DNA of 9,788 bases from a virus (taxonomy: Duplodnaviria > Heunggongvirae > Uroviricota > Caudoviricetes): the IMG/VR virus record IMGVR_UViG_2703718846_000007, positions 1 through 9,788 of that record; one strand, 5' to 3'. How positions within the stretch are numbered: position 1 is the first letter of the stretch; each line of letters begins with the position of its first letter. The notes beneath the pieces are model-generated. The model saw nothing but the letters and a program-made list of their open reading frames with translations. It searched no databases and was not told the DNA's origin. This document shows, piece after piece, positions 2,277 to 8,482 of the stretch. A program made the translations under genes and the position numbers.

Positions 2277-2500
2277 GAATCACTATTCCTCTCGCCATGA
2301 GTGGTATCCTTCTTTTTGTAAAGTTCTGGGTTCAAAGATAACTTCCCCTTGGAGTATGCTGCGGCTTCCGCAGCCCTCCCCTTTGGAACTATTTCACCAG
2401 GTCGCCTACGCCACATGTAAATAGCTTCACGGGTTATCCCATAAAAATCGGCAACCCTCTGAACAGAACCAAAAAACTGGACAAGTTCATCAACTCGCAT
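2273..2500 (-). CDS. Cro-like HTH transcriptional regulator (YdaS family)
   Basis: 75-aa ORF with a strong Shine-Dalgarno (AAGGAGGG) 4 nt upstream of ATG 2498-2500. It is divergent from the repressor gene and carries an HTH-like segment VQRVADFYGITREAIYMW. Confidence 0.8.
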   Translation of the reverse strand: MRVDELVQFFGSVQRVADFYGITREAIYMWRRRPGEIVPKGRAAEAAAYSKGKLSLNPELYKKKDTTHGERNSDS

Positions 2501-2596
2501 TTAGCCCTCCTTCAATCTAATTATTTTTAGACTAAATGATAATTTTTTTTAGGTCAATGCAATCTAAAATAATTTATATTCAATTCACGGGAGAAA
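2501..2596. promoter_or_regulatory. Divergent immunity control region (pR-like and pRM-like promoters with operators)
   Basis: 96-bp AT-rich intergenic region between divergent cro-like and cI-like genes. Minus-strand TTGACC (plus 2552-2557), 17-bp spacer, TAGTCT (plus 2529-2534). Repeated TTTTAG / CTAAAA half-sites, e.g. TTTTAGG-N11-ATCTAAAA at 2545-2568. Confidence 0.6.
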
Positions 2597-3244
2597 ATGA
2601 TGGAAAGCCTTGGCATCAGGCTAAAGAGACTCAGAAAAGATAAGGGACTAACCCAAGTAGAACTGGGTAAGCTTTCAGGTGTAACTGGAGTTACTGTAGG
2701 GTACTGGGAGAAGGATCTAAACGAACCTGGTAGTAAAGCTCTAAGTAAATTAGCCCAGGCATTAGGAACTACTGAGTCCTACCTCCTGTATGGAGTATCG
2801 TCTCCTGAATCATCTTTTATGCAGATCAATCCAGGCTCTCAGATCCCCTATTTTTCTTGGGGTGACGCGATTTCTTTCCTAATTTTAGAAGGAGAGAAAG
2901 CTATGGGAAATGTCGATAGGATCACCACATTCTTTGATGTCGAGGAAGGTGATTTTGCCGTTTCAATGCCTGATGACACTATGCATAACCCAACTGGGTC
3001 GCCGAGCATCCCAGTTGGTGCCACAGTGATCCTAAGGCCTAGAGAAAGTTATAAAAATGGTAGCATCGTCGCTGTAATAGTTCCGGATCCGCTTACAAAT
3101 GAACCATCTATGACTATAAAAAAATTAGTTATTGATGGAAAGCTTGCGTACTTAAGCCCTCTTAATCCACGCTATCAATCATCTTTGCTTACACCAGAGT
3201 GTAAAATTGTTGCCGTAGCAAAAGGCGTACAGTTCAACTTATAG
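2597..3244 (+). CDS. cI: CI-like phage repressor with N-terminal HTH and C-terminal S24 (LexA-like) autopeptidase domain
   Basis: 215-aa ORF with GGGAG upstream. N-terminal HTH LTQVELGKLSGVTGVTVGYWE; C-terminal motifs AVSMPDD (catalytic Ser), TIKKLV (catalytic Lys) and LSPLNPRY align with lambda CI GNSM, TFKKLI and LQPLNPQY. Confidence 0.9.
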   Translation: MMESLGIRLKRLRKDKGLTQVELGKLSGVTGVTVGYWEKDLNEPGSKALSKLAQALGTTESYLLYGVSSPESSFMQINPGSQIPYFSWGDAISFLILEGEKAMGNVDRITTFFDVEEGDFAVSMPDDTMHNPTGSPSIPVGATVILRPRESYKNGSIVAVIVPDPLTNEPSMTIKKLVIDGKLAYLSPLNPRYQSSLLTPECKIVAVAKGVQFNL

Positions 3245-3266
3245 CCCCGTCAAACCCTTTAATCTG

Positions 3267-3292
3267 AGGTCGGCAATGCCGACCTTTTTTTT
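3267..3292 (+). terminator. Rho-independent terminator downstream of the repressor gene
   Basis: Hairpin GGTCGGC-AAT-GCCGACC at 3268-3284 followed by eight T at 3285-3292, 23 nt after the cI stop. Confidence 0.75.
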
Positions 3293-3312
3293 AAATTATT
3301 TTAGATTTTCGC

Positions 3313-3341
3313 TTGACTAAAAAACTAAATACTTTTAGATT
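3313..3341 (+). promoter_or_regulatory. pL-like sigma70 promoter for the early-left operon
   Basis: TTGACT (3313-3318), 17-bp spacer, TAGATT (3336-3341). Flanked by two copies of TTTTAGATTT (3299-3308 and 3333-3342), the same half-site motif seen in the cI/cro intergenic region. Confidence 0.5.
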
Positions 3342-3515
3342 TATCACATACCCAACCCGCCCCACAGAATGCAGGGCAATACTTCGAGTTACCAGGCAGT
3401 GGTCAGGGGTTAAGTAGCCAGCCCGAGGCGTAAGAACATGACGGCAGGGTTCAACTTTAACTATGCAGCAGGTTTTTGTTCCGCCACCCCGGCGTTAAAG
3501 GGAAATGAGGTCAGC

Positions 3516-3668
3516 ATGGATACTATCGATCTTGGCAACAACGAATCTCTGGTATACGGCGTGTTTCCAAACCAGGACGGTACGTTCACCGCGATGACGT
3601 ATACCAAAAGCAAAACGTTTAAAACCGAAGCTGGCGCGCGTCGCTGGTTAGCCAGAAATACTGACTGA
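3516..3668 (+). CDS. Small early protein (50 aa), YdaF-like / DUF1391-like
   Basis: ATG 3516 with GAGG 5 nt upstream; TGA stop at 3666-3668. The ORF-track frame extends upstream to 3438 but that start is less well supported. Family assignment is from memory only. Confidence 0.55.
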   Translation: MDTIDLGNNESLVYGVFPNQDGTFTAMTYTKSKTFKTEAGARRWLARNTD

Positions 3669-3679
3669 TGAGGTTAACG

Positions 3680-4477: not shown

Positions 4478-4996
4478 CTACGGATTGCTGCTCAATGCTC
4501 TACCTATCTCTTCTTCAGATGGGGGCGGTATATAGTCATCATTGCGTTCAAATTTAAAGCGCGAATCACATTTCAGGCATTTAGAAATATGGAACTTATC
4601 ATGCTCACCAATTTCAACAGGTTGAAGTATTGCTATTACACCATGCTGATAGCAATTGGGACAGGCATAGTGAAAACATGTGTCTTCTTCGTCGAGGCTG
4701 TTCCTGAAAGCATAGACAAAATGCCCAAAACCAGTTTTGTGTATCGTATAGCATTCAAGTTTTCGATTACGCTCGTCAATTTCATGACATTTTTGCTTAA
4801 GCAAGAGTATTTCCTCGTACTGAAGCGCGAGCGTTTTCGCTAGCTCTGCGTTCTGTATTTGTAAGTCTGCCAGTTGGCGACGCATTTCGTAGACAGCCTT
4901 TTCACGTTCAGATTGGCTTTTTGCATCAAGTATTACCTGTAATAAATCAATCGAGACTTTAATTGCCGTTATTGATGAAGTTATTCCAGATAGCAT
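4478..4996 (-). CDS. Hypothetical coiled-coil plus zinc-ribbon protein (172 aa) on an antisense-oriented AT-rich insert
   Basis: ORF-track frame 4478..5113, trimmed to ATG 4994-4996 because a perfect TATAAT lies about 32 nt upstream. N-terminal heptad-like region RRQLADLQIQNAELAKTLALQYEEILLLKQK; C-terminal CPNC...CLKC cysteine pairs. GC is visibly lower than in the flanks. Confidence 0.65.
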   Translation of the reverse strand: MLSGITSSITAIKVSIDLLQVILDAKSQSEREKAVYEMRRQLADLQIQNAELAKTLALQYEEILLLKQKCHEIDERNRKLECYTIHKTGFGHFVYAFRNSLDEEDTCFHYACPNCYQHGVIAILQPVEIGEHDKFHISKCLKCDSRFKFERNDDYIPPPSEEEIGRALSSNP

Positions 4997-5007
4997 TCTT
5001 AACTCTC

Positions 5008-5060
5008 TGTGTTGTTGGGGTATCCGGATTATACAAATTTCTTGTTGTTGGGGAACAACA
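5008..5060 (-). promoter_or_regulatory. Promoter and candidate operators for the antisense gene
   Basis: Minus-strand TATAAT (plus 5028-5033). Two copies of TGTTGTTGGGG (plus 5010-5020 and 5043-5053); the second forms a perfect palindrome TGTTGTT-GGGG-AACAACA (5043-5060) over the -35 region. Confidence 0.5.
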
Positions 5061-5313
5061 GGAACCACCTCGCCTGATGTGGTTAAAAGCAGGCACACAA
5101 CACGAAAGCGCACGGCGAAGGTTTCTTTTCCTTAGAAGGCTTGTCGTTAGATTTCTTCGACCGTGCGCTTCCGGTTGTGGCAATCCGCGAAATGGCGCGG
5201 CGGTAAGTATGGCGGGGTTATCCTTACCCCCACTGGTAGCACCGGGTTGTCAGGTTGACCATACGCTTAAGTGACAACCCCGCTACAACACTCCATGTTG
5301 AGTATTGACCTTT

Positions 5314-5354
5314 GGCGGCATCAGTTTAATTGCTGGCTGATGTCCGCCCTTTTT
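5314..5354 (+). terminator. Rho-independent terminator (plus strand)
   Basis: Stem GGCGGCATCAG (5314-5324), 12-nt loop, stem CTGATGTCCGCC (5337-5348), then CTTTTT (5349-5354). Confidence 0.6.
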
Positions 5355-5550
5355 AAAGTGAATTTTGTGATGTGGTGAATGCGGCTAAGCGCACGCGGAA
5401 CAGTTAAAAGACCATTTGTTCTCCGTATCAATACTTATGGGTAGGTACTTGCAGGCGGGTCCCTGTATTCCGGCGTTAATTGTTAACTGGTTAACGTCAC
5501 CTGGAGGCACCAGGCACCGCATCACAAAATTCATTGTTGAGGACGCGATA

Positions 5551-5739
5551 ATGGAAACGTTATTACTCAATTCCACTACGCCTGAGACTCGTTTTGAAAT
5601 TGGCGTTATCACTGGCGATAAAAACTTTATTGAAGATGCCATTAATCAGATAAAGCATGAGCCAGATTCATCAAATGAGATATGCATTGCTTCAATGCTG
5701 GCCCGTTTACGCCCGACGCAAAAAGGATGCTGGCAATGA
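5551..5739 (+). CDS. Hypothetical small protein (62 aa)
   Basis: ATG 5551 with GAGGA 7 nt upstream; stop TGA 5737-5739 overlaps the next start. The ORF-track frame begins at 5416 but upstream in-frame starts lack a Shine-Dalgarno and use rare codons. Confidence 0.45.
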   Translation: METLLLNSTTPETRFEIGVITGDKNFIEDAINQIKHEPDSSNEICIASMLARLRPTQKGCWQ

Positions 5740-5939
5740 ATACCACATTTGCACTTGTTCTGACGGTTTTTCTTGTTTCCGGTGAACCAGTTGACATGGT
5801 TATTGGCGTATACAGCTCAATGAAAGAATGCATGGCTGCCGCAGATGAACAGAAAATTCCCGGTAACTGTTATCCGGTCGATAAAGTTATTCACCAGGAT
5901 AATAACGAAATCCCGGCAGGACTTAAAACAGCGCCGTAA
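5736..5939 (+). CDS. Hypothetical small protein (67 aa) with an N-terminal hydrophobic segment
   Basis: ATG 5736 overlaps the upstream stop (ATGA), with AAGGA 8 nt upstream. N-terminus MNTTFALVLTVFLVSG looks like a signal peptide or transmembrane helix. The ORF-track frame starts at 5682. Confidence 0.5.
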   Translation: MNTTFALVLTVFLVSGEPVDMVIGVYSSMKECMAAADEQKIPGNCYPVDKVIHQDNNEIPAGLKTAP

Positions 5940-6016
5940 TTGATATTCGGTTTCATTTTTATATGTCAGCAATGACAGGGATTTGTTCACCCTTAAATCT
6001 GTAATGAGGTTTATCA

Positions 6017-8482
6017 ATGAGCACTGATAAAGAAGAATTTGCATTATATTGTGAAGCAAAAAATGACAAAGTCAGAAAACGCCTTGGAATTAAAGGTGGT
6101 TTTTACTGGACTACAGCAAAAAAATTATCTGTTGCCATCTCCCGCTGCATTACCGCAATGGATGACAACGATTATGATGAAGACGACTTTAAAAAACCCG
6201 TCCGCGTCCATTTACCCGTTGTGAATGACCTTCCACCTGAAGGCGTGTTTGATACTGAATTCTGTAACCGTTACGAAAAAGGCGGGGAAGATGGCATCAC
6301 AATGGTATTTATCGCGCCCTCACCCTCTGCGCAGGACAAACCAGCCAACACTGACAATACCAACGTCAACGGCGAAGACATGACTGAGATTGAGGAGAAC
6401 ATGCTCCTGCCGGTTTCAGGTCAGATTCTGCCTGTTCGATGGCTGGCACAGCACGGCAGCGAAAAACCGATCACACACGTTTCGCGGGACGAACTGCGCG
6501 CATTACATAACGCACAGGATGAAAAACTTCCCGCCGTTACCGCGCTGGCTATCTCAAATAAAGCAGCGCAACTCGAACCGCTGGAGATTCGCGATCTCCA
6601 CAAACTGGTGCGAGACACTGACAAAGTTTTCCCCGCCCCCGTAAATTCGGACCTGGGACTGATAACTTCTTTTATCGAAGCATACCTGGACGCCGACTAC
6701 ACCGATCGCGGTCTGCTGACAAAAGAGTGGATGAAAGGAAATCGTGTTTCGCGTATCACCCGTACGGCTTCCGGTGCAAATGCCGGTGGCGGGAACAAAA
6801 CCGATCGCAATCCGAATTTAGTACACACCTTCGATACGCTGGATGTGGAGACTGCAGCAGCCACACTTCCGATGGATTTTAATATTTATGAAATTCCGGG
6901 TAGCGTTTATCGTCGCGCAAAAGAAATCGTCCTGAAAAGAGAAAGTCCGTTCAAAGAATGGTCCGCAGCACTTCGCGCAACCCCGGGTATTCTGGATTAT
7001 TCCCGCGCCGCTATTTTTGCACTTATCCGGAGCGCTCACCCTGAGTTTTATCACTACCCGGGACGCCTTCAGGGGTATATCAACGCCCACTTAACGGAGA
7101 CTGATCACGAGAACCCCAGCAAGGAAACTCTCACTGCTGCACGACATACACCGGAAAAAGATATCCTGGAAGAAGTTAACCGCGAACTGGCTGCTGAACG
7201 CGAAACAGAAGAAGAAAAAAATAATGAGGAAAAATCACAACCGTCTGACGCAATGGCAGATGAACAGGCAACGGCCGAAGCAATGGAGCCGGATACAACT
7301 GAACATCACCAGGACACGCAATCGCTGGATACTCAGGAACAGGTAGATCCAGTTAAACAGGTAAAAGTTACCGCTGACGAAGTAAACAAAATTATGCAGG
7401 CAGCCAATATCAACCAGCCTGATGCCGACAAAATACTGGCAGTCCATCGCGGTGAGTTCGTTGACGGAATTAGCGACCCGAATGATCCGAAATGGGTTAA
7501 GGGGATTGAAACCCGCGATTCTGTGAACCAGAACCTGCCCGAATCGGAACAAAACGACCAGAAAGCGGAACAGAACAGCCCAAATACGTTACAAAACGAG
7601 CCAGAAACGAAACAGCCTGAACCAGAAGAGCAACAAGAACCGGAAAAAGTCTGCACCGCCTGCGGTCAGAGCGGTGGCGGCAACTGCCCTGATTGTGGCG
7701 CGGTGATGGGCGACGCAACATACCAGGAAACATTCGATGAAGAGAATCAGGCTGAAACTCAGGAAAATGATCCGGAGGAAATGGAAGGCGCTGAACATCC
7801 GAACAATGAGAATGCTGGTAACGATCAGCATCACACCAGCGATAGTAAAACTGGCGAGGCGGCAGATCCCTTAATTACGGTGAACAGTCATCACATTATC
7901 ACATCCACCAGCAGGGTATGGCACCATCTGATGATCGACCTTGAAACGATGGGAATTAACAGCAATGCGCCCATCGTAGTTATTGCTGCAGTGTTTTTCG
8001 ATCCGCAGACCGGGGAAATCGGACCGATATTTTATGTTGTCATCAGTCTGGTTGACGCAATGGACAAAGGTGCTACTCCCGATGGTGACGTAATCGAATG
8101 GTGGCTGGCGCAGTCCAGCGAGGCCAGATCTGCAATATTGGTAAATCAAATTCCGTTAGATGATGCACTATTGCAATTGCGGGAATTTATCGACGAAAAC
8201 TCCGGTGAATTTTTTGTTCGGGTCTGGGGAAATGGAGCCAGCTTCGACAACGTGATTTTACGCCGTTCATATGAACGGCAGGGTATCCCCTGCCCGTGGC
8301 GTTACTGCAACGATCGCGATGTGCGCACAATCGTTGATCTGGGAAAAGCCATAGACTTCGATGCCAGAACAGCTATTCCGTTCGAAGGCGTACGCCATAA
8401 TGCACTGGATGATGCCCGCCACCAGGCAAAACAAGTTTCAGCTATCTGGCAAAAACTGATCCCGAGTCAGGTTGATTTTTAA
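6017..8482 (+). CDS. Large prophage exonuclease (821 aa): RecE/exodeoxyribonuclease VIII-like N-terminal region, acidic low-complexity linker, CxxC-x9-CxxC zinc ribbon, C-terminal DEDDh-type 3'-5' exonuclease domain
   Basis: ATG 6017 with GAGG 7 nt upstream. C-terminal about 196 aa (nt 7892-8479) carry DEDDh motifs MIDLET, GNGASFD and HNALDD. Zinc ribbon CTACGQSGGGNCPDCG near nt 7651-7700. N-terminal segments (NTNVNGEDMTEIEENMLLP..., DYTDRGLLTKEWMKGNRVS...) resemble enterobacterial exonuclease VIII proteins as I recall them. Confidence 0.85.
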   Translation: MSTDKEEFALYCEAKNDKVRKRLGIKGGFYWTTAKKLSVAISRCITAMDDNDYDEDDFKKPVRVHLPVVNDLPPEGVFDTEFCNRYEKGGEDGITMVFIAPSPSAQDKPANTDNTNVNGEDMTEIEENMLLPVSGQILPVRWLAQHGSEKPITHVSRDELRALHNAQDEKLPAVTALAISNKAAQLEPLEIRDLHKLVRDTDKVFPAPVNSDLGLITSFIEAYLDADYTDRGLLTKEWMKGNRVSRITRTASGANAGGGNKTDRNPNLVHTFDTLDVETAAATLPMDFNIYEIPGSVYRRAKEIVLKRESPFKEWSAALRATPGILDYSRAAIFALIRSAHPEFYHYPGRLQGYINAHLTETDHENPSKETLTAARHTPEKDILEEVNRELAAERETEEEKNNEEKSQPSDAMADEQATAEAMEPDTTEHHQDTQSLDTQEQVDPVKQVKVTADEVNKIMQAANINQPDADKILAVHRGEFVDGISDPNDPKWVKGIETRDSVNQNLPESEQNDQKAEQNSPNTLQNEPETKQPEPEEQQEPEKVCTACGQSGGGNCPDCGAVMGDATYQETFDEENQAETQENDPEEMEGAEHPNNENAGNDQHHTSDSKTGEAADPLITVNSHHIITSTSRVWHHLMIDLETMGINSNAPIVVIAAVFFDPQTGEIGPIFYVVISLVDAMDKGATPDGDVIEWWLAQSSEARSAILVNQIPLDDALLQLREFIDENSGEFFVRVWGNGASFDNVILRRSYERQGIPCPWRYCNDRDVRTIVDLGKAIDFDARTAIPFEGVRHNALDDARHQAKQVSAIWQKLIPSQVDF

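Follow-up and report, generated by a model that had tools for sequence, protein, structure and literature searches.

The closest described counterpart of the locus analyzed here is the dicBF operon of the Escherichia coli K-12 Qin prophage, published with the gene order ydfABC-dicF-dicB-ydfD (PMC10448788, PMC5069750) and controlled by DicA, a repressor without a RecA cleavage site (PMC10448788). K-12 DicB binds MinC, and the complex reaches the septal ring via ZipA and depolymerises FtsZ; the DicB-MinC interaction also inhibits ManYZ, blocking phages that use ManYZ for DNA entry (PMC6832061). Induction of K-12 YdfD lyses the cells, and co-expression of either dicB or sulA prevents this lysis (PMC8835842). 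Through its residues 1-28 YdfD binds IspG, both in vitro and in vivo, and either ispG overexpression or HMBPP relieves the lysis that it causes; this IspG mechanism comes from one study, carried out without enzyme kinetics (PMC8835842).

We analyzed a window of 9,788 nucleotides of phage DNA, the whole stretch considered here, in which an earlier note had pointed out two small overlapping ORFs immediately upstream of an exonuclease. From the hydrophobic N-terminus of the second ORF, the note had proposed a membrane-targeted host-takeover factor comparable to the Kil-type division inhibitors. Our analysis indicated that the two ORFs are very probably dicB and ydfD of a Qin-like lambdoid prophage, with the early-operon roles that we propose below. 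The identity and architecture of the pair, its conservation and the purifying selection on it are documented here directly. Both genes are already known and are annotated as a matter of routine, dicB having been described in the 1980s and ydfD in 2016, so the locus carries little weight as a discovery and its main value is a corrected record for the window.

The dicB-ydfD pair and its operon

The window covers the early region of a Qin-like lambdoid prophage, in whose early-left operon the pair lies. The plus strand carries, in this order, a repressor, a promoter, a ydfA-like gene, a 215-aa ORF, a DicF-like sRNA, a structured leader, dicB, ydfD, the exonuclease, xis and int; the minus strand carries a gene for a replication protein as well as YdaT/CII-like and Cro-like genes. 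The repressor is a CI-type protein of 215 aa with HTH and S24 peptidase domains (2597..3244, plus strand; Pfam HTH_3 and Peptidase_S24) and is likely the repressor of the operon. It is followed on the same strand by a terminator-like site (3266-3286) and a promoter-like site (3313-3341). The first gene of the operon is the ydfA-like DUF1391 gene (3438..3668, plus strand; Pfam PF07151, 98.9 bits), whose position matches that of ydfA in K-12 Qin. The closest relative among complete genomes is the ompW-adjacent prophage of E. coli PapRG-04-4, which is 96-98% identical to the window on both flanks and differs from it in the immunity module (2283-3669).

Within this operon, dicB (5551..5739, plus strand) encodes the division-inhibition protein DicB in 62 codons, from the ATG at 5551 to the TGA stop at 5737-5739. 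It is joined directly by ydfD (5736..5939, plus strand), which encodes a small lysis protein of the DUF1482/YdfD family (67 aa, ATG at 5736, TAA stop at 5937-5939) and whose product begins with MNTTFALVLTVFLVSG. Direct reading of the letters places the start codon of ydfD and the stop codon of dicB in an ATGA overlap (5736..5739, plus strand). Each gene has a Shine-Dalgarno sequence of its own on the plus strand: GAGGA (5539..5543) lies 7 nt 5' of the dicB ATG and is identical in all the loci compared, and AAGGA (5723..5727) lies 8 nt 5' of the ydfD ATG, within the 3' end of dicB, and is kept in the K-12 and mEp460 alleles. The 821-aa exonuclease ORF begins at 6017, 77 nt past the ydfD stop. 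The layout that the earlier note had described, with a 62-aa and a 67-aa ORF overlapping in ATGA, each behind its own Shine-Dalgarno sequence and just 5' of the exonuclease, was thus present in every element.

The overlap suggests that dicB and ydfD are co-translated. We found no stable or conserved RNA structure at the dicB-ydfD junction, where the fold z-scores of five alleles ranged from -0.2 to +1.9, and on these values we rejected enforced coupling by an RNA fold that hides the Shine-Dalgarno sequence and start codon of ydfD. Since the junction lacks such a structure and ydfD has its own Shine-Dalgarno sequence, coupling through termination-reinitiation is possible, being allowed by the overlap and not enforced.

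Profile searches assigned both ORFs to described families. The first matched the Pfam DicB family (PF05358) over residues 1-62 of 62 (E 2.9e-26, 91.4 bits, cut-off 27) as well as the NCBIfam model NF049927, CellDivInhibDicB (121.6 bits, cut-off 100), and is 56% identical to the K-12-type DicB of a Qin-type prophage along all 62 residues. By these comparisons it is DicB, and its hydropathy profile has no hydrophobic segment. The second matched DUF1482 (Pfam PF07358; E 1.4e-24, 86.2 bits, cut-off 25) and phrog_1092 (E 3e-38), and across 63 residues it is 78% identical to the K-12-type YdfD of the same prophage, which places it in YdfD/DUF1482, the family of E. coli K-12 YdfD. In our alignments it has all the residues that are invariant in the family (G16, C32, E38, Q39, C45, P47 and PAG60-62), a family that comprised ~516 clusters at 90% identity in a profile search. 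The pair therefore consists of real ORFs whose family matches are far beyond chance. A sequence search of the PDB gave no match for DicB or YdfD, and the PADLOC library of anti-phage defence systems gave none for DicB, YdfD or two neighbouring ORFs. A scan of genome contigs with YdfD peptide patterns, which were too specific, recovered only 4 loci.

These assignments change the reading of the locus. An early host-takeover division inhibitor is indeed present, as the earlier note had expected, but it is DicB, the product of the first ORF, and not the second ORF acting through a hydrophobic N-terminus. Neither ORF belongs to the Kil family, since at E<=0.1 Pfam returned only DicB, DUF1482 and a weak DUF7336 match. 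The hydrophobic second ORF corresponds to the lysis protein YdfD, a reported inhibitor of IspG (PMC8835842), and is not a division inhibitor.

The YdfD of the window is 67 aa long and ends in LKTAP, not 63 aa long ending in L63 as in K-12. The two forms differ by one T in a T-run (CTT-AAA in the window vs CTT-TAA-A in K-12), such that in the window the K-12 stop is lost and KTAP is added. Congruently, in the 63-aa alleles of K-12, E. albertii and mEp460 the +1 frame past the stop codon reads KT(A/V)P and then ends at a stop. We rejected a private frameshift as the origin of the 67-aa length, since alleles of this length are frequent in E. coli, E. albertii and E. marmotae; being common in the family, this length is also compatible with YdfD membership. 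The alignments thus point to two allelic length classes of 63 and 67 aa, of which the 67-aa form may be the older one and the K-12 form a derivative shortened by a 1-nt insertion. In the 63-aa K-12 protein, deletion or change of the last residue abolishes killing (Lu et al., PMC8835842).

Two neighbours of the pair have properties of their own. The exonuclease (6017..8482, plus strand; Pfam PF06630 and PF16473; phrog_607) is of a fusion type, with a RecE-type (exonuclease VIII) region at its N-terminus and an Rv2179c-like DEDD 3'-5' exonuclease domain at its C-terminus, between which lies a long middle part that is acidic and of low complexity; its match to the NCBIfam exonuclease VIII model covered positions 1-603 of 877 only and scored 891.9 bits (cut-off 1269). 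On the minus strand, a 211-aa ORF (4478-5113; phrog_1244) runs antisense to the early-left operon. This ORF has a coiled-coil-like middle, C-terminal CxxC pairs and a weak, sub-cutoff match to NF047912 (putative zinc-binding), gave no match in PADLOC and, lying between the 215-aa ORF and DicF, resembles an insertion of the moron type.

RNA elements and conservation of the pair

Upstream of dicB lies a DicF-like sRNA with an intrinsic-terminator hairpin (5303..5349, plus strand), in which the stem at 5317-5344 is followed by a T-run. Its match to Rfam RF00039 (37.9 bits, E 1.7e-5) falls below the gathering score of 48, and both its position and the terminator hairpin are conserved. Since ~7 nt (UUCUGGU) of the 5' part of K-12 dicF are absent from this copy, it may act on a different range of targets than K-12 DicF.

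The sRNA is followed by a structured, STnc100-like leader of dicB (5357..5535 within a region of about 5351-5570, plus strand), which matched Rfam RF02076 (STnc100) with 33.9 bits, below the gathering score of 47, and has a fold z-score of -5.95. The leader is closed by a 21-bp duplex of 5357-5377 with 5515-5535 that ends 3 nt before the Shine-Dalgarno sequence of dicB; the duplex resembles a substrate of RNase III, which may cleave the transcript at this site. The hairpin at its core (5497-5518) was found in at least 120 viral contigs, with two versions of the stem that are set apart by one compensatory pair, and across 131 viral copies compensatory changes are found in both the closing helix and the core hairpin. 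Positions 5468-5550 of the leader are >=95% identical in 4,433 of the 4,653 matching E. coli records, and the leader is more conserved than the genes behind it. Moreover, the module made of DicF and the leader also precedes at least three other, unrelated ORFs in phages, and in those cases the similarity stops right after the motif. We considered the antiterminator RNA put of phage HK022 as an identity for the leader and rejected it for lack of similarity: against the whole HK022 genome the leader gave chance-level short matches only, and no motif was found near PL/PR (putL/putR).

The pair itself is widely conserved. A megablast search of positions 5101-6100 against 5,426 complete E. coli genomes gave matches in 4,745 of them, and dicB together with ydfD (lysis protein YdfD) or DUF1482 is annotated in ~4,000 of the same set. 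Sequenced phages, such as mEp460, Tritos, HannyBb and PPompW, carry the pair too. The overlap is kept as ATGA or GTGA in K-12 Qin, E. albertii and the mEp460 and PPompW phages, and it survives in pairs that are only ~58% identical at the nucleotide level; in the DNA alignment of K-12 with the window, the Shine-Dalgarno sequences and the ATGA junction are the same. Pairwise dN/dS against diverged alleles was ~0.3 for dicB and ~0.2 for ydfD, and both frames are under purifying selection. The exact allele of the window is rare, as 7 E. coli records are >=99% identical to it over the pair and most are 60-90% identical; identity of >=90% over the pair was reached in 54 of 4,088 E. coli records. Conservation as ORFs in relatives had been named beforehand in the earlier note as one of the observations on which its reading depended, and on this point the pair held up.

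YdfD-like ORFs are also found in Citrobacter, Salmonella and Klebsiella phages, with 43-47% identity and at about position 2501 of the phage loci. There they occupy the same slot before the exonuclease, and the ORF preceding them is unrelated to DicB; in the Klebsiella phage the ATGA overlap is retained with this non-DicB upstream ORF. Because the YdfD-like ORFs of these phages follow ORFs unrelated to DicB, the pairing of YdfD with DicB is not obligatory outside Escherichia and Shigella.

Alternative readings of the pair

The reading frame of dicB is open 5' of position 5551 in every Escherichia locus that we examined, and longer starts stand in the databases: PGAP gives 100 aa in the near-identical PapRG-04-4 prophage and phage mEp460 is recorded with 95 aa. 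These observations would fit a longer dicB, of 100-107 aa, with an upstream start codon (ATG 5437 or TTG 5416), which we nevertheless regard as very improbable. The Pfam and NCBIfam models of DicB are 62 residues long and aligned from 1 to 62, the K-12 gene encodes 62 aa and has no in-frame upstream ATG, and ATG 5437 falls within a segment that is absent or rearranged in K-12. In addition, there are zero synonymous changes in the 81 nt before 5551, against a dS of 0.5-1.3 in the coding part, and these 81 nt form the 3' strand of the 21-bp leader helix. The lack of synonymous changes 5' of dicB points to a constraint on the RNA rather than on a protein, and together the comparisons favour the 62-aa start. 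Even less credible is that the two genes are leftovers without function, decaying in a cryptic prophage. Its best-studied copy sits in the defective Qin prophage and the allele of the window is as rare as stated above; against this, both frames are intact and under purifying selection, the pair occurs in inducible or sequenced phages, and the window carries intact int, xis, exonuclease and S24-type repressor genes, so we consider such decay extremely improbable.

A role of the second ORF at the membrane, whether as a single-pass anchor, a holin-like protein or a secreted peptide, deserves closer discussion. The original YdfD paper, by Masuda et al. in 2016, reportedly proposed membrane association for the hydrophobic N-terminal segment. 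This segment is the hydropathy maximum of the protein (Kyte-Doolittle mean of 2.7 for residues 4-14) and is hydrophobic throughout the family; besides, the phenotype of the K-12 orthologue is lysis, and the two invariant cysteines could form a disulfide in the periplasm. The apolar run, however, spans only 14 residues (T3-G16), and a conserved Gly with an acidic residue after it (G-E/D) marks its end. None of the homologues has a K or R flanking the run, and some of them start with ME-. Its 19-residue Hessa sum is ~+6 kcal/mol, and by a rough hydropathy test YdfD has neither a hydrophobic helix of at least ~18-20 residues nor a signal peptide with a basic n-region. AlphaFold modelled YdfD with a mean pLDDT of 79 as a beta-beta-alpha-beta fold (strands 4-12 and 18-26, helix 29-39, strand 43-48), and the apolar run became strand 1, within residues 1-40 at a pLDDT of 84-91. 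Moreover, a detergent-free purification yielded tagged K-12 YdfD from the soluble fraction (Lu et al., PMC8835842), IspG, which it binds through residues 1-28, is cytoplasmic, and cysteine mutants retain IspG binding (PMC8835842). The short apolar run, the missing basic flank and the modelled beta-strand make membrane targeting doubtful, and they tell against a transmembrane helix or a Sec signal peptide of canonical form. In silico, the membrane targeting that the earlier note had proposed for the second ORF finds no support, and we consider action at the membrane unlikely.

The strand model is itself a lead rather than a proof, since pLDDT exceeded 75 in 2/5 models only and the alignment of 20 sequences (49-90% identity) behind it was shallow, because the profile search gave mostly relatives >=75% identical. 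A Foldseek search of the PDB with this model gave no match at E<=0.001. If YdfD does begin with a strand of a soluble domain, the region of strand 1 could possibly be a surface for IspG binding or for oligomerisation. Tentatively, and as a combination that we think possible yet somewhat improbable as a whole, we propose that the N-terminus of YdfD is a strand of a soluble domain, that the 67-aa length is ancestral, and that the STnc100-family leader is a portable module of control and recombination. If this were true, the leader would provide toxic early genes with a portable means of post-transcriptional control and of recombination.

Proposed role and comparison with known systems

The biochemical activities of DicB and YdfD in the window would be those of their K-12 orthologues, from which we infer them. 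Once repression is lifted, transcripts reading through the DicF terminator would allow both DicB and YdfD to be translated. By homology with K-12, the 62-aa DicB would bind MinC and reach the Z ring through ZipA, blocking division, and its complex with MinC would inhibit ManYZ and exclude ManYZ-dependent phages. YdfD, which would be started within the stop of dicB at the ATGA from its own Shine-Dalgarno sequence, is predicted to bind IspG and block the MEP isoprenoid pathway, starving envelope synthesis to the point that dividing cells lyse. DicB made from the same mRNA would mask this lysis, and the architecture of the two genes suggests that YdfD is never produced from the shared mRNA without the DicB that masks its lysis.

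On this reading, the corrected record of the window has a division inhibitor as its first ORF and, as its second, a lysis or MEP-pathway toxin whose effect is masked by the first. The pair here sits in an apparently intact, probably SOS-inducible lambdoid prophage and not in the defective Qin, so that the role of the pair during a real phage cycle could reasonably be studied in the window prophage. Modest leads for specialists are the structured leader, the diverged allele of DicB and the 67-aa class of YdfD.

The lambda Kil and Rac KilR proteins are the analogy for the first ORF, as small early-left proteins that block the FtsZ ring and are encoded between the immunity and recombination genes. 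They have no sequence relationship with DicB, which acts through MinC, and the analogy does not extend to the hydrophobic second ORF. Lu et al. (PMC8835842) liken YdfD to the single-gene lysis proteins, such as E of phiX174, A2 of Q-beta and LysM of phage M, as a small phage protein whose inhibition of an enzyme that makes envelope precursors leads to lysis. It differs from them in its target, IspG of the MEP pathway, in the absence of homology, and in its place in the early operon of a dsDNA lambdoid phage, which is expected to have late lysis genes of its own.

The nearest comparison remains Qin. As in K-12, the DicB of the window has 62 aa, and its gene follows DicF and the leader and immediately precedes ydfD; the Shine-Dalgarno sequence and the overlap are shared too. 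The window allele is 56% identical to its K-12 counterpart, from which its action on MinC, ZipA and ManYZ is predicted by homology. The YdfD proteins have in common the hydrophobic N-terminus, the two cysteines, the PAG motif and the overlap with the dicB stop, and they differ in length, with 63 aa in Qin YdfD (a paralogue of YebW) and 67 aa including KTAP in the window. The RNA elements follow the K-12 arrangement of a DicF-like terminator hairpin and then a structured leader, although both scored below gathering against RF00039 and RF02076 and ~7 nt of the K-12 5' region are missing from the DicF copy. The operon as a whole matches the published K-12 order, but it probably answers to a CI-type repressor that carries an S24 peptidase domain, and not to DicA; since this repressor is of the cleavable type, joining an HTH to an S24 peptidase, whereas DicA of Qin lacks a cleavage site, the dicB-ydfD copy of the window is probably SOS-inducible.
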